A stretch of DNA of 64,000 nucleotides, from NCBI GenBank assembly GCA_964480345.1, contig CAYZNW010000002.1, positions 64,524-128,523 on the forward strand, in the 5' to 3' direction. The position numbers and the translations under genes are program-made. The stretch is from an uncultured Candidatus Saccharibacteria bacterium (GTDB taxonomy: Bacteria; Patescibacteriota; Dojkabacteria; SC72). Every line of letters starts with the position of its first letter. The first letter of the stretch is position 1. The notes below the pieces were generated by a model that worked only from the letters and a program-made list of their open reading frames with translations, had not been told where the DNA came from and did not search any database. This document shows, one piece after another, positions 332 through 34,775 of the stretch.

Positions 332-973
332 TTATATCATGCTCTTAATAGGTTCAAAACTTCTTCTATGAATATCACAAATACCGTATTTCTGAATAGC
401 TTCTAAATGCTTCTTAGTACCGTAACCAACATGACAATCAAATTCATACACAGGATAAAGTTTAGAATACTCTAACATCATCCTATCTCTACATACCTTA
501 GCTAAAACAGAGGCAGCAGCAATACTGTAATGATTCAGATCCCCTTTATCAATACTCTCCATCTCATATCCATCAAGTAAATATATACCCCCATCAGATA
601 TGATATATTCAACAGAAACACCTAGTTTCTGCTCTACTTCTTTAACAGCTTTGGTCATTGCTAGAAGAACTGCATTCTTAATACCTAACTTGTCTATTTC
701 TTTCTCACTTACAATACCTATACCGTACGCAGTAGACTTTTCTCTAATCAGATCATATGCTGTATCTCTCTGTTTTTTTGTCATCTTCTTGCTGTCTCTT
801 ACAGTATCAACTACTTGATTAGCTTTAGTAATTACAACTGCCCCTGCTACTACAGGACCTGCTAAAGGACCTCGTCCTGCTTCATCTAAACCTACAACAT
901 ACTTTTTCCCTAAAGACCACAACTTTTCTTCCAATTTAATATCTGGATATATCATATAAATATATGGTAACAT
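332..973 (-). CDS. rnhB: Ribonuclease HII
   Basis: VVGLDEAGRGPLAGPVVAGAVV and DSKKMTKKQR motifs with the DGG...D acidic residues typical of RNase HII; about 200 aa. Confidence 0.9.
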   Translation of the reverse strand: MLPYIYMIYPDIKLEEKLWSLGKKYVVGLDEAGRGPLAGPVVAGAVVITKANQVVDTVRDSKKMTKKQRDTAYDLIREKSTAYGIGIVSEKEIDKLGIKNAVLLAMTKAVKEVEQKLGVSVEYIISDGGIYLLDGYEMESIDKGDLNHYSIAAASVLAKVCRDRMMLEYSKLYPVYEFDCHVGYGTKKHLEAIQKYGICDIHRRSFEPIKSMI

Positions 974-979
974 ATATTT

Positions 980-1297
980 ATGAAAATTATTCTTAAAACC
1001 ATAGCGATAGCCACAGTATTCCTTTTACCAGCGACACTCACTCTTGCTCAAGAGCAACCTACTACTCTACAAGGTCAAACAGCTGAAGTAGAAATAGAGA
1101 GTAAAGAAAGTATTGATGTACAGGAGGATGAAACTACAACTAATCAAGTTACTGAAGAACCTAAACAAGAGGAAGTAGCAAAGCAACAAGTAGTAGAGGA
1201 GAGGAAATACTCTCTTGGAACATTACTTGTAGCCTTCTTGATTCCTGCGTTTTTTCTGATAGTATTTTATTTAATACTTAAAACCGTTAAGTTCTAA
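980..1297 (+). CDS. Hypothetical secreted/membrane-anchored acidic protein
   Basis: N-terminal signal-like hydrophobic segment, E/Q/T-rich low-complexity middle, C-terminal hydrophobic anchor (LLVAFLIPAFFLIVFYLIL). No recognisable catalytic motif. Confidence 0.35.
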   Translation: MKIILKTIAIATVFLLPATLTLAQEQPTTLQGQTAEVEIESKESIDVQEDETTTNQVTEEPKQEEVAKQQVVEERKYSLGTLLVAFLIPAFFLIVFYLILKTVKF

Positions 1298-1322
1298 TAT
1301 CTAAATTTTAAATATTTAACAT

Positions 1323-1688
1323 ATGGCAGAAAACGGAAAATCTTTTGCAAAGGGAGCAATCTTCGGAGTAATTAGTGGTGCATTAGCTGGTATTCTTCTT
1401 GCACCAAAATCTGGTAAAGAAACTAGGGAGGATATTAAGAAGTTATCTGTAGAGTTACAAGATAAAGCTGAGGAGATATATACTAATGCCAAGAAACAGT
1501 TAGCTACAAAGGTAGAAAATGTAAAGAAGGCAGGTAAATCTATTGATGAGACTAAATACAAAGAATTAATAGCTGAAGTAGTTGACGATTTTAAAACTAA
1601 CCAGAAAATCACTCAACAAACGGCAGTAAAGTTAGGTGAAATATTAAGGAAAGACTGGGAGAAAGTAAAGAAACAGATAGCTAAGTAG
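1323..1688 (+). CDS. YtxH-like (DUF948) membrane-associated protein
   Basis: GAIFGVISGALAGILLAPKSGKETREDIKK matches the YtxH GxxxGxxxGxLxAPKSGKETR signature, followed by a coiled-coil K/E-rich tail. Confidence 0.6.
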   Translation: MAENGKSFAKGAIFGVISGALAGILLAPKSGKETREDIKKLSVELQDKAEEIYTNAKKQLATKVENVKKAGKSIDETKYKELIAEVVDDFKTNQKITQQTAVKLGEILRKDWEKVKKQIAK

Positions 1689-1758
1689 CTTCCTAGCAAT
1701 AAGGTAATGTAGAAGAGGAGTAGAAATACTCCTCTTTTTCTAATATACTTCAAACATT

Positions 1759-1831
1759 GCGAGAGTAGTTCATTTGGTAGAATGTCTCCTTCCCAAGGAG
1801 AAGGTAGCGGGTTCGAGTCCCGTCTCTCGCT
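1759..1831 (+). tRNA. tRNA-Gly (anticodon CCC)
   Basis: Cloverleaf read by eye: acceptor GCGAGAG/CTCTCGC, anticodon stem TCTCC/GGAGA with loop TTCCCAA, T-arm GCGGG TTCGAGT CCCGT. CCA is not encoded. Confidence 0.85.
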
Positions 1832-1843
1832 TAGAAAATCTGA

Positions 1844-2548
1844 TTAGTTAACTCTCTCACTCTTCATACTTTCGCTATACTCTTTTGTAAGCATTTCCTC
1901 TGCAGTTTCAGTGGGAATATAATTTTCATCAAAGAGATGATAGGCAGGAGTGAAATTATCCTTAACCCGATCTAGATAATGATCAAACTCCTCTTGAGTT
2001 CGACGATCTTTATATGCCCTATATCTAATAGATTCTCTAATATTCGCAGGATTATAGTTATCAATTGCAAAATGTTCCTGTTTCGAGAAGTAATTAAAAT
2101 CATCTGTGAGTTCAAGATCGACAAGTGTATCAATTTCACTATCATATGAATAATCTGCCACCCTTTTAACACAATCCATAGCATGAAATCCTCCAACAAC
2201 TAAACTTTCAACTTCTCCTAGTTGGTCTAGTAAAAACTTCTCGTTAGGATATTTCACCTCATTTGAATGTTTAACAGTTCCATTTTTGTGATATCCACTC
2301 GCTTCCTCAAAGGTTACATCTGTAAAGATGATTTTGTCTTCACTTTTAACTTCAACATTCTTTATGTTTCTGTCTGGATATACAGCAAAGACAACTTCAT
2401 AGCCTTTCTCTCTATACCTTTTCTGGATACATTCGTTTAGAGTAGATATGGGGTCTCTGTACCCATGTCTTCTGCAAAACTCCGCACTAATAAAAGAGGT
2501 GTCGAAGAACTCTTCAATTGGATATAAAAATAAAAAAAACTTCCTCAT
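1844..2548 (-). CDS. Hypothetical protein; weak resemblance to the isochorismatase-like cysteine hydrolase motif
   Basis: 234 aa with no strong motif. SLVVGGFHAMDCVKRVA resembles the VxVxGxxxxxCV nucleophile region of isochorismatase/PncA-family hydrolases. It sits between the tRNA-Gly 3' region and its duplicated copy. Confidence 0.45.
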   Translation of the reverse strand: MRKFFLFLYPIEEFFDTSFISAEFCRRHGYRDPISTLNECIQKRYREKGYEVVFAVYPDRNIKNVEVKSEDKIIFTDVTFEEASGYHKNGTVKHSNEVKYPNEKFLLDQLGEVESLVVGGFHAMDCVKRVADYSYDSEIDTLVDLELTDDFNYFSKQEHFAIDNYNPANIRESIRYRAYKDRRTQEEFDHYLDRVKDNFTPAYHLFDENYIPTETAEEMLTKEYSESMKSERVN

Positions 2549-2619
2549 AGGGCAATATTATACTACAAAAGCACCATTGATTTTCCACAATCTCTTTGTT
2601 ACAATTCCTGTTACGAAAT

Positions 2620-2674
2620 GCTGGTATAGCTCAGTCATAAGGAGAAGGTAGCGGGTTCGAGTTCCGTCTCTCGC
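2620..2674 (+). pseudogene. Chimeric tRNA remnant: 5' 16 nt of tRNA-Thr fused to the 3' half of tRNA-Gly(CCC); not foldable as a tRNA
   Basis: GCTGGTATAGCTCAGT (identical to tRNA-Thr 3311-3326, with the same upstream TTGTTACAAT..GTTACGA promoter-like block) joined to GGAGAAGGTAGCGGGTTCGAGTTCCGTCTCTCGC-TTAGAAA. The latter is a 1-mismatch copy of tRNA-Gly 1789-1838 including about 25 nt of its 3' flank. The acceptor ends cannot pair. Confidence 0.6.
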
Positions 2675-2691
2675 TTAGAAATTTTTAATAG

Positions 2692-3231
2692 TTAATCCTG
2701 ACTCTCGTTATTGGATAGATTTATCTTCAAAGAAATCTGTGATTCCTCATCTAACTGTCTATATGTAATACCACATTCATCAAAAAGTCTTTTTGATGCT
2801 TTTATTCCATCTGTATCAGCATATTTGTCACTCAAATACACCACTTCCTTAATACCTGATTGAATTATTTCCTTTGCACACTCGTTACATGGAAAAAGAT
2901 CTACATATATTCTTGCACCTTCCATATCTTTTCTACTACCACGATAGTTTAAAATTGCATTTCTCTCTGCATGTACAACATATGGGTACTTAGTTTCCAA
3001 ATATTCCCCTTCTCTACCCCAAGGAAATTTACTATCTTCAAAACCATTTGGAGCACCATTGTATCCAATTGACAGTATACGATTATCATCACCTACTATA
3101 CATGCACCTACCTGAGTATTAGGATCTTTACTTCGCATTGCTGATAGCTTCGCTATGGACATAAAGTAAACATCCCAACTTATTCTCTCTTTCCTCTCTA
3201 AATTGTATTCTTTCTCAGCTCCTTCTTCCAT
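2692..3231 (-). CDS. comEB: Deoxycytidylate (dCMP) deaminase, ComEB-like
   Basis: Cytidine/deoxycytidylate deaminase zinc motifs HAERNAI and PCNECAK; size about 180 aa. Confidence 0.85.
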   Translation of the reverse strand: MEEGAEKEYNLERKERISWDVYFMSIAKLSAMRSKDPNTQVGACIVGDDNRILSIGYNGAPNGFEDSKFPWGREGEYLETKYPYVVHAERNAILNYRGSRKDMEGARIYVDLFPCNECAKEIIQSGIKEVVYLSDKYADTDGIKASKRLFDECGITYRQLDEESQISLKINLSNNESQD

Positions 3232-3310
3232 ATTTATTCACATATTATACCAAATCAATCAAACAATGTTGTACTCCCCTCTCTCATTTGTTACAATACT
3301 TGTTACGATT

Positions 3311-3383
3311 GCTGGTATAGCTCAGTTGGTAGAGCATTCCCTTCGTAAGGGACAGGTCGTTGGTTCGACTCCAACTACCAGCT
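3311..3383 (+). tRNA. tRNA-Thr (anticodon CGT)
   Basis: Acceptor GCTGGTA/TACCAGC, D-arm TAGCTCAGTTGGTAGAGC, anticodon loop TTCGTAA, T-arm GGTTCGACTCC. Confidence 0.85.
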
Positions 3384-3398
3384 AAATATACAAAAACT

Positions 3399-4475
3399 AT
3401 GAAAACACCAAAATATACATTAACAAACCTAATGCTAAGCTACATAGTAAAATATGAGCTTGCCCTAAACGATATGAGGTACAACCCTCTTCCTGAAAAA
3501 TACATATCACCAATACTTGAGAAATTAGCAACGGAGGACTTAGATAACCTCGGAGAACTCATCTCATACCCCATTGGTTACAACAAATCATTAAGTATAC
3601 AAAGAGGACAAGAGATGCCATCAGAGAAAAAGAAATTCAAAATATTTACAAACTTTAGAAATGTTAAAGATTTTGTAAATTCATACAACGATAACAACTC
3701 ACTAAGAGCCTCTATGGAGTTAGCTACACATATAAACAGATTAATAACTAAAGACATTGTAGATGATACTGAGATAGGTAACCTAAGAACATTTTCAGAG
3801 AAGCCAAATGAAATATATGATACCTGGTACAAATGTAGAGATTTCTACCCTAACCTAGATCCAGTATCGTACTTTAATGAAATATTTGAATGGTTACAGA
3901 ATGGAAAAGATAATAACCATAAACTACTTAAAATGGGAGTATTGCTGTATGAATTCATAGACAAAGCTCCATTTACAGCAGGTAATCAAGTAACTGCTCT
4001 TCTTGTTACAGAAACCATCGCTAAAAAATATGGATACAATCCAGACAACATATTTCCATTTTTCAAATCTGTAAACAGCATAGCAGAAGACTTCACATCT
4101 GCATTCAAACTCTCAAAAGGTAAACTCGATCTAACAATATTCCTAGAAGCCTTTCTCTATACAATTTCTAAAACTGCTGTAGAAACATCAAGAGAAATTA
4201 AAGAAACATATATCAAGAAGGTAAAAAAACAGGGAGATTTAGAATTGCATTTAAATCCAAGGCAGATAAAAGTGATAGATTACTTAACAATTAATCAGAA
4301 GGTAACAAGAAGTAACTTTACTAAAATGATGGGAGTATCTTTCATGACCTCCTATAGAGATTTACAAGATATGTTGCAAAAGAAATATATTCTACAAAAA
4401 GGCAAAGGAAGAGGTACTTTCTATATCTTAAACAAAAATCAAAACCAACAAAAAGAGGATGTAGTTATTGAATAA
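3399..4475 (+). CDS. Fic/DOC-like protein with degenerate Fic motif and C-terminal winged-helix-like domain
   Basis: Track ORF starts at 3360 inside tRNA-Thr; the first ATG clear of the tRNA is 3399 (MKTPKYTL). APFTAGNQVTALLV aligns to the Fic HPFx[DE]GNGRxxR motif with H, D/E and R replaced. The C-terminus KVTRSNFTKMMGVSFMTSYRDLQDMLQKKYILQKGKGRGTFY looks like a wHTH. Confidence 0.4.
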   Translation: MKTPKYTLTNLMLSYIVKYELALNDMRYNPLPEKYISPILEKLATEDLDNLGELISYPIGYNKSLSIQRGQEMPSEKKKFKIFTNFRNVKDFVNSYNDNNSLRASMELATHINRLITKDIVDDTEIGNLRTFSEKPNEIYDTWYKCRDFYPNLDPVSYFNEIFEWLQNGKDNNHKLLKMGVLLYEFIDKAPFTAGNQVTALLVTETIAKKYGYNPDNIFPFFKSVNSIAEDFTSAFKLSKGKLDLTIFLEAFLYTISKTAVETSREIKETYIKKVKKQGDLELHLNPRQIKVIDYLTINQKVTRSNFTKMMGVSFMTSYRDLQDMLQKKYILQKGKGRGTFYILNKNQNQQKEDVVIE

Positions 4476-4503
4476 TCGACATAAAATTGCTAGTATTAAC
4501 ACC

Positions 4504-6009
4504 ATGAAATTAGAAGAGAAGTACGATGTAATCATCGGATTAGAGATACATGTACAGACCAAAACAAACTCTAAGATGTTCTGCTCATGTCCCACAGGAT
4601 ACTTTCAGCAAGAACCAAATACTCATGTATGTCCCGTATGTTTGGGCTTACCAGGAGCGTTACCAGTAGTTAACAAACATGCAATAGAGTTATGTATATT
4701 AATGGGGCTAGCAACAAAATGTAAAATAGATAACGAAATACACTTTGATAGAAAACATTACTTCTACCCAGATTTGCCAAAAGGATATCAGATTAGTCAG
4801 GGTAAAAGACCAATATGTTCCAATGGTAAAGTATCACTCCCAAACGGTACTGTTGTAGAGATTGAAAGAATACATCAAGAGGAGGATGTTGCGAAATCTA
4901 CACATCACACAGAGGCAATGACAGGAAGAGCATACACACTCATTGATTACAACAAATCAAGCGTCCCTCTCATAGAGATTGTTACTAAACCTTGTATTAG
5001 AAATGCTAAAGATGCTAAAGATTACGCTACTAGAATTAGACAGATAGCAAGATATTTGGAGATATCTGATGCTGATATGGAGAAAGGACAGATGAGATGT
5101 GAGCCTAACATATCAATACAGGAGAAAGGAAAATGGGAAATGAAAGATGGAAAAATTCTCCCCATTGGTGATTACAAACTAAATCCAAAGGTAGAGGTTA
5201 AAAATATTGGGTCCATAACTGCAGTCGAGAAAGCCATAGAGTATGAAGTTGATAGAATGTTAAAACAGATTGAGAATAATGAGGAGATGAAACAGCAAAC
5301 AAGAGGTTGGAATGCAGATAAAGGTGTAACAGAATTTCAGAGAAGTAAAGAAACAGCTGATGACTACAGATATATGCCAGATCCAGATATTCCAATTATT
5401 GATATTCCTGAAGAGGTAATAAAAAAGATTTCGAAGAACCTCATAGAGTTACCTGACGAGAAGATTGCAAGATATATTAAAGAGTGGGATTTGCCACAAT
5501 ACTCAGCTGAAGTAATATCAGCATCTAAAGAGAGCGCTAAATATTTTGAAGATCTACAGAAGGAGTTAAGTAAAAGCATGAGCGATAGCGAAGCAGCAAA
5601 AGAGGCTTCCAACTGGTTAATGGGGACTGTGTATGCAATAAATAATAAGCTTGGGAAAGAAAATGAAAAAATTGATATTGCAATATCTGAATTAGCTATG
5701 TTAATTACAGCATTTAAAGAAAAAGTATTTACAAAGAATAGAGCCGAAGAGATACTGCTGGAGAAAATAGAGAAAGGTATAGATATAACAAAAGAGATAG
5801 AGAAGATGAAGAAAGAGAGAGAGAGCAGTAGTGGTAATCTTGAGAATATTGTAAAAGAGGTTATATCTAAAAACGAGAAAGCAGTTGTTGATTATAGAAA
5901 TGGTAAATTAGCTAGTATAGGTTTCTTGTTAGGACAGGTTATGCAAAGTACTAAAGGTACAGCTAATCCTGATGAGGTTAAAAATATTTTAGAAAAAGAA
6001 TTAAAGTAA
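4504..6009 (+). CDS. gatB: Asp-tRNA(Asn)/Glu-tRNA(Gln) amidotransferase subunit B
   Basis: KYDVIIGLEIHVQ...KMFCSC...CPVCLGLPGALP GatB N-terminal signature, and a C-terminal YqeY-like tail. Start chosen at the ATG 4504 (MKLEEKYD) rather than track start 4468, which lies 7 nt before the stop of the preceding gene. Confidence 0.9.
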   Translation: MKLEEKYDVIIGLEIHVQTKTNSKMFCSCPTGYFQQEPNTHVCPVCLGLPGALPVVNKHAIELCILMGLATKCKIDNEIHFDRKHYFYPDLPKGYQISQGKRPICSNGKVSLPNGTVVEIERIHQEEDVAKSTHHTEAMTGRAYTLIDYNKSSVPLIEIVTKPCIRNAKDAKDYATRIRQIARYLEISDADMEKGQMRCEPNISIQEKGKWEMKDGKILPIGDYKLNPKVEVKNIGSITAVEKAIEYEVDRMLKQIENNEEMKQQTRGWNADKGVTEFQRSKETADDYRYMPDPDIPIIDIPEEVIKKISKNLIELPDEKIARYIKEWDLPQYSAEVISASKESAKYFEDLQKELSKSMSDSEAAKEASNWLMGTVYAINNKLGKENEKIDIAISELAMLITAFKEKVFTKNRAEEILLEKIEKGIDITKEIEKMKKERESSSGNLENIVKEVISKNEKAVVDYRNGKLASIGFLLGQVMQSTKGTANPDEVKNILEKELK

Positions 6010-6302
6010 TGAAAATAGATGTAAAGAAAATAGCAGAATTATCAAGAATAGCTCTTACGGATAAAGAGCTAAAAGAGTTTACTCCACAGATGGAGGGTAT
6101 ATTAGATTCTGTAGAGGTATTAAAAGAGGTTGATACTACAAATGTAGAACCTATGAAAGCTCATATTAAGTTTGAAGATTTACGAGAGGATGTTCCTGGT
6201 AAAACTTTATCTCAGGAAGAGGTTCTTAAAAATGCAAAACATACAGAAGATGGATATGTCAAAATATATGGAGATGTTTTTGGAAGTGAGAGCGGTGAGT
6301 AG
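6009..6302 (+). CDS. gatC: Asp-tRNA(Asn)/Glu-tRNA(Gln) amidotransferase subunit C
   Basis: 97 aa. IAELSRIALTDKEL...EDVPG matches the GatC family. The ATG overlaps the gatB stop (TAATG). Confidence 0.8.
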   Translation: MKIDVKKIAELSRIALTDKELKEFTPQMEGILDSVEVLKEVDTTNVEPMKAHIKFEDLREDVPGKTLSQEEVLKNAKHTEDGYVKIYGDVFGSESGE

Positions 6303-13328: not shown

Positions 13329-13401
13329 GGGTGTATAGCTCAACTGGTAGAGCAAACGGCTCTTAACCGTTAGGTTCAGGGTTCGAATCCCTGTACACCC
13401 A
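13329..13401 (+). tRNA. tRNA-Lys (anticodon CTT)
   Basis: Acceptor GGGTGTA/TACACCC, anticodon stem AACGG/CCGTT with loop CTCTTAA, T-arm CAGGGTTCGAATCCCTG. Confidence 0.85.
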
Positions 13402-13478
13402 CTTTAATACCCCTAAACCCCACAACATGATCTAAAAGTGTTAATATATACCAACATAATCTCATTACTCACATACTA

Positions 13479-23957: not shown

Positions 23958-24117
23958 GATTGTGGGCTTTTAATTAAAGATTAACAACAACTCATGAAAT
24001 GTAACATTTTCGGAAGAGGTTGTAAACAGGTCCGTCCTAGGTCGGACCTAGGTCTGACCTCTTTTGTAAACGAAAGAAAAGAAGGAAAGAAAGAATAACG
24101 ATTGAGAAACTGCTTGG

Positions 24118-24191
24118 AGCGAGAGACGGGGTTCGAACCCGCGACCTACACATTGGCAATGTGTCGTTCTAGCCAACTGAACTACTCTCGC
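24118..24191 (-). tRNA. tRNA-Gly (anticodon GCC)
   Basis: Reverse complement folds: acceptor GCGAGAG/CTCTCGC, anticodon stem ACACA/TGTGT with loop TTGCCAA, T-arm GCGGGTTCGAACCCCGT. CCA is encoded (TGG on + at 24115-24117). Confidence 0.85.
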
Positions 24192-24194
24192 ATA

Positions 24195-24267
24195 TGCCGA
24201 GACCCAGGATCGAACTGGGGACCCTCTGTTCTTCAGACAGATGCTCTACCAACTGAGCTATCTCGGC
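24195..24267 (-). tRNA. tRNA-Phe (anticodon GAA)
   Basis: Reverse complement: acceptor GCCGAGA/TCTCGGC, D-arm TAGCTCAGTTGGTAGAGC, anticodon stem TCTGT/ACAGA with loop CTGAAGA, T-arm CCAGTTCGATCCTGG. Confidence 0.85.
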
Positions 24268-24291
24268 ATAGGTCACAACGAGAAAATAATA

Positions 24292-34595: not shown

Positions 34596-34704
34596 GTTTT
34601 TTATATTAAAGTTAGATATATTTATATGATATATTGATATTTGAATATATACAAATTGTTGCAGAAATTGGTTTAGATATATATAATGGGGCGACATCGT
34701 TGAT

Positions 34705-34775
34705 CCGCGATAGCTCAATGGTAGAGCAAACGGCTGTTAACCGTTCGGTTCCAGGTTCGAGTCCTGGTCGCGGAG
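34705..34775 (+). tRNA. tRNA-Asn (anticodon GTT)
   Basis: Acceptor TCCGCGA/TCGCGGA, anticodon stem AACGG/CCGTT with loop CTGTTAA, T-arm CCAGGTTCGAGTCCTGG. Confidence 0.85.

Follow-up and report, generated by a model that had tools for sequence, protein, structure and literature searches.

A tRNA-Thr/tRNA-Gly hybrid pseudogene at the joint between two transposed gene blocks in a Dojkabacteria genome

Within the 64,000-nt stretch of Dojkabacteria DNA analysed here (the window), positions 2620-2676 hold a non-functional hybrid pseudogene that joins the 5' end of a tRNA-Thr gene to the 3' half of a tRNA-Gly gene. We consider it probable (roughly 62%) that this chimera arose as a joint when tRNA-Thr and tRNA-Gly recombined non-allelically, by tandem duplication and loss or by unequal crossover. 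A sequence-only reading of the same DNA had proposed the footprint of recombination between two tRNA genes, and this proposal is supported: the Thr-5'/Gly-3' joint lies at the breakpoint of a block transposition, and the two tRNAs are immediate neighbours in many relatives. The chimera is a well-documented example of an already known type of scar, not a new system or mechanism.

The slot between the two tRNA genes holds two minus-strand genes, called X and Y here (Table 1), which were correctly described as not paralogous (BLASTP E = 0.23); the Pfam match of Y likewise bears out its earlier identification as a dCMP deaminase. At its C-terminus, Y exceeds all homologs by 4-7 aa. X has a predicted fold that distantly resembles isochorismatase-like cysteine hydrolases, and its comparison with PHROGs and PADLOC gave no match. 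The spacer between X and the chimera carries a minus-strand -10-like box for X (ATATTATAC) and the extended -10 promoter of a tRNA-Thr gene (TGTTACAAT), and a promoter scan placed a promoter-like site at 2577-2605. On the left side of the locus, the YtxH hairpin and its flank are kept in all relatives.

Table 1. Features of the locus in window coordinates, followed by the blocks aligned with locus L005.
Feature	Position	Strand	Evidence or similarity
Promoter-like site upstream of tRNA-Gly, after the YtxH terminator hairpin (GAGGAGTAGAAATACTCCTC + T-run)	1721-1749	+	Consensus scan
tRNA-Gly(CCC), intact, left anchor of the variable slot	1759-1831	+	ARAGORN; Rfam 65.5 bits; cloverleaf fold z = -2.9
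Repeat copy 1: Gly 3' half, starting just after the anticodon and ending 6 nt beyond the 3' end	1795-1837	+	42/43 to 2639-2681
Gene X, 234 aa, no Pfam family	1844-2548	-	
Native X-to-tRNA-Thr spacer	2549-2619	.	~87-90% identical to the spacer between X or another gene and tRNA-Thr in L005 and L023
Chimera, Thr-derived part (tRNA-Thr nt 1-16)	2620-2635	+	16/16 to 3311-3326
Chimera junction, CATAAGG	2636-2642	+	Thr nt 34-40 (CGTAAGG) 6/7; Gly nt 34-40 (CCCAAGG) 5/7
Chimera, Gly-derived part, repeat copy 2 (Gly nt 37-73 + 6 nt)	2639-2681	+	42/43 to 1795-1837, E = 4e-17 (BLAST within the window)
Weak downstream repeat flank; holds TAGTTAA, which supplies the Y stop codon and resembles the X 3' end	2682-2702	+	13/21
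Gene Y, dCMP deaminase, 179 aa	2692-3231	-	PF00383, E = 1e-26; homologs in the same slot of many Dojkabacteria
Y-to-tRNA-Thr spacer with a second Thr promoter copy (3287-3310)	3232-3310	.	~65-70% similar to any other copy
tRNA-Thr(CGT), intact, right anchor of the slot	3311-3383	+	ARAGORN; Rfam 68.6 bits; 100% identical to the L023 tRNA-Thr
Block matching L005 psiGly-X-spacer-Thr nt 1-16	1741-2635		77.6%
Block matching L005 real Gly 3' half-Y	2639-3254		78.2%
Window flanks vs L005			74.7% and 81.5%

Both parts of the chimera can be traced, each to a different resident tRNA gene (tRNA-Thr including its promoter, and tRNA-Gly). The identity of 2620-2635 to the first 16 nt of tRNA-Thr, reported before, was confirmed and extends to the preceding T (2619-2635 and 3310-3326, 17/17), and the near-identity claimed for the nucleotides upstream was borne out, with 20/22 matches between 2595-2616 and 3287-3308; for the Thr-derived half, BLAST within the window gave E = 2e-6. 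The description of the right part as a copy of the Gly 3' half with one mismatch holds for the mismatch count, but the match begins at 1795, just 3' of the anticodon, and not at 1789. Its sole mismatch turns a G-C pair of the T-stem into G-U. The copy had also been said to run on into the downstream flank; similarity is present there but far weaker than in the tRNA part, and the fall from 42/43 to 13/21 over the next 21 nt, where chance is ~28%, is significant (Fisher p = 3e-4). As the junction matches nt 34-40 of both tRNAs, it implies one of two histories: the tRNAs crossed over in the AAGG that both have just after the anticodon and 17 nt were deleted internally, or the two parts were joined directly and illegitimately with 3 nt of filler. 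BLAST of all 9 tRNAs with their flanks found no other tRNA fragments in the window apart from ordinary similarity between tRNAs, and scanning the genome and metagenome contigs with a degenerate pattern of the Gly 3' half returned intact tRNA-Gly only, one per locus. In contig scans, the chimera is known from the read sets of this strain only.

The sequence-only reading had itself raised an assembly artefact (a collapsed repeat) as the explanation that would undo it. The genome is metagenome-derived, and tRNA genes, at which the repeats sit, are frequent break points in assemblies; the Logan contigs that cover the locus also end inside tRNAs. Nevertheless, the contigs from two other sequencing runs, SRR15237811 (window 1776-3347) and SRR15237809 (2268-3347), carry an exact copy, 100% identical across the chimera, and the chimera is therefore not an artefact of assembly. 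In addition, the junction CTCAGTCATAAGGAG is unique and shows no splice at a shared k-mer (the longest word common to tRNA-Thr and tRNA-Gly is 8 nt), and the chimera has a substitution and a 17-nt deletion of its own. A collapsed or mis-joined repeat, or the co-assembly of two strains, is thus effectively refuted.

That the element cannot fold as a tRNA, as had been asserted, was borne out by three approaches: ARAGORN made no call, the Rfam tRNA model gave no match at the gathering threshold or at E <= 10, and the minimum free energy (-12.5 kcal/mol) was no better than that of shuffled sequences (z = +0.38, compared with -2.9 and -3.0 for the real tRNAs). The acceptor ends are unpairable (5' GCTGGTA vs 3' TCTCGC), and the search for other RNA families in Rfam returned noise only. 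The hybrid has probably decayed since its formation, with 17 nt gone, and is probably inert even though its Thr promoter looks intact. It is very unlikely that the chimera is instead a maintained functional element, such as a promoter plus T-arm module giving a small RNA, or a transcript antisense to the dCMP deaminase gene. The element does retain an extended -10 promoter-like site (TTGATT-17-TACAAT with TG), and the T-arm is still pairable because the only substitution gives G-U. Against this, there is no conservation beyond the read sets of this strain, the fold is that of a shuffled sequence with no Rfam family, and the equivalent joint in the sister lineage holds a different relic.

The probable origin of the chimera emerges from comparison with the closest relatives (L005-L010 and L015; GatB 87% and Fic-like 86% identical), in which the order is Gly-Y-psiGly-X-Thr, that is, with the two genes of the window reversed. 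Here psiGly is a decayed full-length tRNA-Gly between Y and X (35-40 bits vs 64.5), and the duplication in this sister lineage spans the whole tRNA-Gly and ~24 nt upstream. When the window is aligned with L005, the two blocks (Table 1) break exactly at 2635/2639, inside the chimera. Relative to L005, two blocks bounded by tRNAs have cleanly changed places (A-B-C-D to A-C-B-D), and the chimera sits where C now meets B. Divergence of the X and Y blocks from the sister lineage equals that of the flanking housekeeping genes, and the linkages X-promoter-Thr5' and Gly3'-Y are conserved. As equally diverged, tRNA-bounded blocks have been cleanly transposed, we take the chimera to be the tRNA-Thr/tRNA-Gly recombination joint. 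The outgroup L011 carries Y before X, which makes the window order the derived one. The left half of the chimera can further be recognised as the start of a native tRNA-Thr gene, because its spacer is ~87-90% identical to those of sister lineages, while the two Thr-promoter spacers within the window are only ~70% alike. A decayed tRNA-Thr remnant was also sought in the Y-psiGly spacer of L005 and rejected, as local alignments were no better than shuffled ones except for the shared Y promoter.

Across Dojkabacteria, the interval between tRNA-Gly and tRNA-Thr is hypervariable, with at least 8 states and the dCMP deaminase gene as a frequent occupant. The two tRNAs show their ancestral adjacency (47-103 nt apart) in 7 loci (L003, L004, L013, L016, L017, L018 and L028), which have the same flanking genes as the window (RNase HII and YtxH on one side; Fic-like, GatB and GatC on the other). 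Elsewhere, the slot holds an AF_1845 gene (L024), another gene (L023), a small ORF and Y (L029, L036, L037), an acetyltransferase and Y (L033), or 108aa-APH-acetyltransferase-Y-X (L011). X and APH prove to be clean indels when L011 is compared with L033, the Fic-like proteins of the two being 100% identical. In the synteny comparison proposed earlier, which asked whether close relatives lack the two genes between intact tRNAs, the 7 loci named above lack both, and the sister lineage has both genes in reversed order. It is too simple to see the two genes as new insertions between intact tRNAs, as had been implied, considering that the deaminase occupies this gap in many Dojkabacteria. A broader proposal, which we regard as quite unlikely, is that the Gly/Thr pair with its conserved promoters is a recurrent, recombinase-independent site of gene capture and shuffling in Dojkabacteria, a group with tiny genomes and a scarcity of mobile elements. 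Cargo units bounded by complete or partial tRNA copies would then be stacked, swapped and resolved repeatedly through tRNA-tRNA recombination, and the Thr/Gly hybrid and the sister psiGly would be independent by-products of one process.

The Y side of the locus raises the question of foreign DNA. A Gly-Y-Thr fragment from another Dojkabacteria lineage could have been captured by homology-facilitated illegitimate recombination, anchored in tRNA-Thr and with its Gly end joined illegitimately into the resident tRNA-Thr. Such haplotypes are common, the Y-side Thr promoter spacer is unlike the native one in the chimera (~70% vs 87-90%), its core TGTTACAATACTTGTTACGATT is one base off that of L029, and Y is 88% identical to its L029 homolog in amino acids vs 82% for L005. 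However, Y is nearest the sister lineage in DNA and third-codon positions (L005 62% vs L029 54%), the Gly3'-Y block matches L005 at a level with the backbone (78.2%), and the flank after the Gly copy is like the window's own Gly flank and not like that of L029. We consider such a capture unlikely. A foreign origin of Y was dropped as the leading idea, as overall DNA and third-codon identity favour the sister lineage and block divergences are uniform.

The earlier alternative of integration and partial excision, with a tRNA 3' end as the attachment site, was not supported. A tyrosine integrase directed at the anticodon loops of tRNAs, its gene now lost or located elsewhere, might have put a small circle into tRNA-Gly or recombined the anticodon loops of tRNA-Thr and tRNA-Gly as secondary sites; either variant would leave the Gly 3' half as a direct repeat of 43 nt that resembles an att site, and the two are improbable even when taken jointly. 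The high-identity repeat does begin immediately after the anticodon and extend 6 nt beyond the tRNA, where identity drops sharply, an extent typical for the anticodon-loop att core of tRNA-targeting integrases; the inferred crossover lies in AAGG beside the anticodon, and relatives have empty sites. Yet the flank retains some weaker similarity, and the Thr promoter and 5' end form another repeat that overlaps this one. Pfam found no integrase or recombinase family among the 37 window proteins, including X, Y and every gene of the locus, in agreement with the earlier statement that no integrase gene remains. The supposed element is 0.8 kb long and would enclose the native X-Thr promoter junction, which is backbone in sister lineages. 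Its cargo does not look foreign: it has diverged as the backbone has, and GC is flat (0.34-0.36, the same as the surroundings). Moreover, the sister lineage duplicates the whole tRNA-Gly and upstream sequence, with no att pattern. A phage or island origin was rejected, with 0 matches when viral contigs were scanned for the Gly 3' half core and with X unmatched in the phage and defence collections given above. As regards an integron-type cassette array, the repeat listing held no attC-like imperfect inverted repeats at the boundaries, where the repeats are tRNA-derived, and no integrase was found among the 37 proteins. The chimera is probably no att scar from the recent integration of a foreign island.

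Under the preferred reading, recombination between the two tRNA genes, the window order can be derived from Gly-Y-(psiGly)-X-Thr, as in L005 and L011, by duplicating one contiguous block and deleting one copy of each gene. The tRNA genes bounding the slot would recombine out of register, the tRNA-Thr of one copy with the tRNA-Gly of another. Such an exchange would duplicate or stack everything between Gly and Thr and leave one Thr5'|Gly3' joint mid-way, and redundant copies might then be lost via recombination between the repeated tRNA sequences, giving Gly-X-[Thr5'|Gly3']-Y-Thr. We infer the order of events, which may have been duplication followed by losses, a single unequal exchange between two haplotypes, or a circular intermediate, and likewise the enzymology. 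The window encodes RecA, RecX and RmuC, but no more than 4-8 nt of homology exist at the joint, and on this reading the join itself must have been illegitimate or microhomology-mediated; the crossover also does not fall at a clean homologous position, because 17 nt are missing. No intermediate (a full tandem duplicate, or the double stack Gly-Y-Thr-Gly-X-Thr) was found among the 38 loci examined, and lost X or Y copies have left no visible trace, the only remnants being tRNA-derived, though the spacers are too short to hold any. The spacer before the functional tRNA-Thr is far more diverged than a recent intragenomic duplicate would be, which requires either an older two-unit ancestor or a second haplotype as the partner. 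A simple recent tandem duplication of a single unit was rejected, as X and Y are unrelated and the Thr-promoter spacers differ as noted above.

This locus gives a sequence-resolved case of accessory-gene reshuffling in a Candidate Phyla Radiation (CPR) bacterium without visible mobile-element machinery, in which neighbouring tRNA genes are both conserved anchors and recombination partners. The relics matter for annotation, as they can skew tRNA counts (ARAGORN calls the decayed tRNA-Gly copy of the sister lineage a "tRNA-Leu(CAA)") and can be confused with the att scars of integrases. The remodelled 3' end of the dCMP deaminase gene illustrates that tRNA joints are able to change coding sequence.

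Several known systems resemble this arrangement in part. Genomic islands and prophages that target tRNA genes leave att duplications of the tRNA 3' end, and the present locus shares with them a direct repeat starting from the anticodon loop, variable cargo beside a tRNA and empty sites in relatives. It differs from them in having no integrase among the window proteins, in a segment that holds the native Thr promoter and 5' end, in cargo that is not foreign by composition or phylogeny, and in the second, overlapping repeat, derived from the Thr 5' end, that integrase models would not lead one to expect. Bacterial pangenomes also contain hotspots of gene flux that lie between conserved core genes or tRNAs. 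As in these, one interval between conserved anchors holds different genes in each lineage; unlike them, its scale is tiny (0-5 genes in a genome of ~0.7 Mb), it has no mobile-element genes, and the anchors have themselves recombined together. Tandem duplication-random loss is a model of change in gene order, with tRNA pseudogene remnants, known from animal mitochondrial genomes. The swap of adjacent blocks relative to relatives, the tRNA pseudogenes at the new joints and the retention of one copy per gene agree with this model, whereas the duplicated intermediate and protein-gene pseudogene remnants are not seen here and the duplication boundaries would have been defined by recombination between two different tRNA genes. 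In the sister lineage the relic is another one (the full-length psiGly), which suggests repeated events. Finally, a chimeric tRNA pseudogene marks the endpoint of a rearrangement in the rice plastid genome (Hiratsuka et al, 1989, as described in PMC12371153). According to that description, it is likewise a hybrid of two tRNA genes exactly at a breakpoint, with the parental tRNA genes intact, and was explained by illegitimate recombination between tRNA genes. The plastid event, as recounted there, was a large inversion in an organelle, while ours is a direct-orientation stacking or transposition of two 0.6-0.9 kb blocks in a CPR bacterium, and the present hybrid, compared with the one in that account, has lost a further 17 nt.

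Seventeen nucleotides at 2619-2635 are identical to 3310-3326, namely tRNA-Thr nt 1-16 plus one base 5' of the gene, and the Thr promoter region (3287-3308) is likewise copied at 2595-2616 (20/22). These are followed at 2639-2681 by a copy of the tRNA-Gly 3' half (1795-1837, 42/43, BLAST E = 4e-17). The sequence-only reading had described this Thr/Gly chimera between gene X and the dCMP deaminase gene Y, and alignment bore it out, with two corrections. The single mismatch of the Gly copy stands, but the copy starts at 1795, directly 3' of the anticodon, instead of 1789. Likewise, the roughly 25 nt of downstream flank thought to be repeated match well only over the first 6 nt past the tRNA end; beyond them identity is 13/21, which is significantly lower (Fisher p = 3e-4). 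The 57-nt chimera is not a tRNA, in agreement with the claim that it cannot fold as one: it received no ARAGORN call, Rfam had no match for it at any E up to 10, and in folding energy it does not surpass shuffled sequence (z = +0.38; the parent tRNAs score about -3). That it is maintained as a functional RNA or promoter module is very improbable, considering that a promoter-like site is kept but neither conservation nor structure was found. The junction reads CTCAGT/CAT/AAGGAG, in which CATAAGG matches nt 34-40 of Thr at 6/7 and of Gly at 5/7. Read most simply, this reflects a crossover in the AAGG that both tRNAs have beside the anticodon, then a 17-nt deletion and one substitution; alternatively, the halves were joined directly and illegitimately with 3 nt of filler. 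An assembly artefact, the one objection the sequence-only reading had allowed, can be practically dismissed: Logan contigs from two other sequencing runs (SRR15237811, covering window 1776-3347, and SRR15237809, covering 2268-3347) are 100% identical across the chimera, and the longest word common to the two tRNAs is 8 nt, so a k-mer mis-join cannot make this junction.

Coordinates of features in the window and in related loci (L numbers)
Feature	Position	Strand	Evidence or remark
tRNA-Gly(CCC)	1759-1831	+	ARAGORN, Rfam
X, 234 aa	1844-2548	-	no Pfam family
Y, dCMP deaminase	2692-3231	-	PF00383, E = 1e-26
tRNA-Thr(CGT)	3311-3383	+	ARAGORN, Rfam
Fic-like protein, 358 aa	3399-4475	+	weak Fic-domain match, E = 4e-5; near full-length PADLOC SoFic model match, E = 1e-10
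tRNA-Lys(CTT)	13329-13402		52-nt stretch in common with tRNA-Asn(GTT), 90% identity
tRNA-Phe, tRNA-Gly(GCC)	24115-24268	-	separated by only 2 nt
tRNA-Asn(GTT)	34704-34775		
psiGly	L005 3763-3836	-	ARAGORN label tRNA-Leu(CAA); Rfam 39.7 bits
psiGly	L015 817-890	-	ARAGORN label tRNA-Gly; Rfam 34.9 bits
X indel, 769 nt	L011 5976-6744		
APH + 108aa indel, 1289 nt	L011 7846-9134		aminoglycoside-phosphotransferase-family gene; 108-aa ORF
AF_1845-family gene, 258 aa	L024 5056-5832	+	PF27226; weak PADLOC PD-T4-6 match
Unrelated gene	L023 1-480	-	no family; adjoins tRNA-Thr, uses the same ~70-nt promoter module
Small ORF, 77-89 aa	L029 ~5519-5770	-	one hydrophobic segment; Cys-rich tail CPVC...CVECE.C
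Small ORF, 77-89 aa	L036 ~5503-5736	-	as in L029

Related loci come from two sources: a scan for the Gly 3' half across public genomes and metagenomes, and contigs that encode a homolog of X, of Y or of the Fic-like neighbour. The closest form a sister lineage (L005-L010 and L015; GatB 87%, Fic-like 86% and YtxH 79% identical) with the order Gly-Y-psiGly-X-Thr, that is, the same two genes in opposite order. Here psiGly is a full-length tRNA-Gly copy with ~24 nt of upstream flank (the promoter) and ~20 nt of downstream flank, damaged by substitutions and, in the 3' strand of the acceptor, by the loss of 2 nt. In the slot between tRNA-Gly and tRNA-Thr it is thus a tRNA relic of a second kind, and an annotation trap (Rfam about 35-40 bits vs 64.5 for the real tRNA-Gly(CCC)). 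We compared the window with L005 DNA block by block. Window 342-1835 aligned with the backbone up to the real Gly (74.7% identity); 1741-2635 (Gly promoter, Gly, X, spacer, Thr nt 1-16) with the psiGly promoter, psiGly, X, spacer and Thr nt 1-16 (77.6%); 2639-3254 (Gly 3' half copy, Y) with the real Gly 3' half and Y (78.2%); and 3287-6270 with the Thr promoter, Thr, Fic-like gene and GatB (81.5%). The window therefore corresponds to the sister arrangement with two tRNA-bounded blocks transposed (A-B-C-D to A-C-B-D), and on this alignment the chimera is the C/B joint. This supports the first alternative of the sequence-only reading, recombination between two tRNA genes. The window order is considered derived, as the more distant L011 also has Y-X with X beside Thr.

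Divergence from L005 is about equal in all blocks and GC is flat (0.34-0.36), so X and Y both appear to have been inherited, not brought in recently. That a foreign Gly-Y-Thr fragment was captured with the help of homology is accordingly unlikely; the divergence of the Thr spacer and the 88% identity of Y to L029 at the amino-acid level would fit such a capture, but overall DNA identity and identity at third-codon positions speak for the sister lineage. We consider att duplication by an integrase, the second alternative of the sequence-only reading, equally doubtful. The 43-nt extent of the core is typical of anticodon-loop att sites, but no integrase family was matched among the 37 window proteins (that none is left had been remarked before), none of the viral contigs scanned carries the Gly core, native backbone would lie inside the putative island, the cargo is not foreign, and psiGly duplicates an entire tRNA with its upstream flank. 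Membership in the integrase-island class was rejected, as neither its defining integrase (among the 37 window proteins) nor foreign cargo was found.

The joint also remodelled the 3' end of Y. The flank 3' of the Gly copy has TAGTTAA, which is similar to the 3' end of X and now provides the Y stop codon, and the Y C-terminus extends 4-7 aa further than that of any homolog, which places the right boundary of the copied segment at the very 3' end of Y. The extension, read from the duplicated tRNA-Gly flank, is unique (…INLSNNESQD, where relatives have …INLSEK or a shorter end).

If tRNA-Thr of one DNA copy recombined out of register with tRNA-Gly of a second copy, the product would be exactly a Thr5'/Gly3' joint. 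Such an exchange would duplicate or stack the interval, after which the repeated tRNA sequences could recombine and delete redundant copies. From a two-unit ancestor, Gly-Y-Thr'-Gly'-X-Thr (primes mark inner copies), such an exchange followed by two deletions between full-length tRNA repeats would yield the window exactly, and loss of Thr' with decay of Gly' would yield L005. This route would explain why the X-Thr spacer at the chimera is native (~87-90% identical to L005 and L023) while a different one, only ~65-70% similar to any other, now lies at the functional tRNA-Thr. The same product would come from one unequal exchange between Gly-X-Thr and Gly-Y-Thr haplotypes present together, or from a circle that was excised by recombination of Thr with Gly and then integrated in the Campbell manner; in product the three are equivalent. 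As common words are only 4-8 nt, the join must have been illegitimate or microhomology-level. RecA, RecX and RmuC, all encoded in the window, could be agents of the later repeat-mediated deletions. An exact 21-mer is common to the window's tRNA-Thr and tRNA-Phe.

The window (34% GC, nine tRNA genes) has genes that are usual for small genomes of the Candidate Phyla Radiation (RNase HII, YtxH, GatB/GatC, FtsZ/FtsA/FtsW, RecA), and the database entries closest to it bear the label Candidatus Dojkabacteria. X and Y are not related to each other (BLASTP E = 0.23), as previously stated. X had no match in PHROGs or PADLOC searches and has >200 homologs of ~212 aa from Bacilli, Clostridia and Ignavibacteria MAGs. 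Its AlphaFold model is confident (pLDDT 92.7), with isochorismatase-like cysteine hydrolases (N-carbamoylsarcosine amidase, nicotinamidases) as top PDB matches at a TM of only 0.35-0.5, and its invariant segment VVGGxHxxDCVK is similar to their nucleophile motif. X adjoins dCMP deaminase in three Dojkabacteria lineages. The Fic-like protein, annotated as a DeoR-family regulator in some sources, holds the same position beside tRNA-Thr in essentially all Dojkabacteria loci examined; homologs indicate its ATG start at 3399, and the mechanical call (TTG at 3360) overlaps tRNA-Thr.

The slot flanks are conserved throughout (RNase HII, small protein, YtxH, then Gly ... Thr, then Fic-like protein, GatB, GatC). 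The sequence-only reading had suggested looking for relatives that lack X and/or Y between intact tRNAs; this holds for seven loci with Gly and Thr only 47-103 nt apart (L003, L004, L013, L016, L017, L018, L028), but not for the sister lineage, which has both genes in reversed order. Elsewhere the slot holds an AF_1845-family gene (L024), an unrelated gene (L023), a small ORF and Y (L029-L031, L036, L037; several lineages have this conserved ORF between tRNA-Gly and the dCMP deaminase), an acetyltransferase and Y (L033-L035), or 108aa-APH-acetyltransferase-Y-X (L011). L011 and L033 differ by clean indels of X and of APH + 108aa despite 100% identical Fic-like proteins (GatB 99%). Counting these differing contents, the slot occurs in at least eight states, dCMP deaminase being a frequent occupant. 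The dCMP deaminases of L011 and L033 are only 88% identical; the DNA of the two loci is 95.7% identical on the Thr side of the slot and ~90% on the Gly side. A ~70-nt module upstream of tRNA-Thr, with a -10-like box on the minus strand (ATATTATAC) and the extended -10 promoter of Thr (TGTTACAAT), is kept regardless of the adjoining gene.

The variable Gly-Thr slot is similar to hotspots that pangenome studies have described on bacterial chromosomes. For the swapped order with its tRNA relics, tandem duplication and random loss, a model of mitochondrial gene-order change, is a parallel. The chimera belongs to a known kind of scar, to which it adds a well-resolved case from a phylum that has been little studied.
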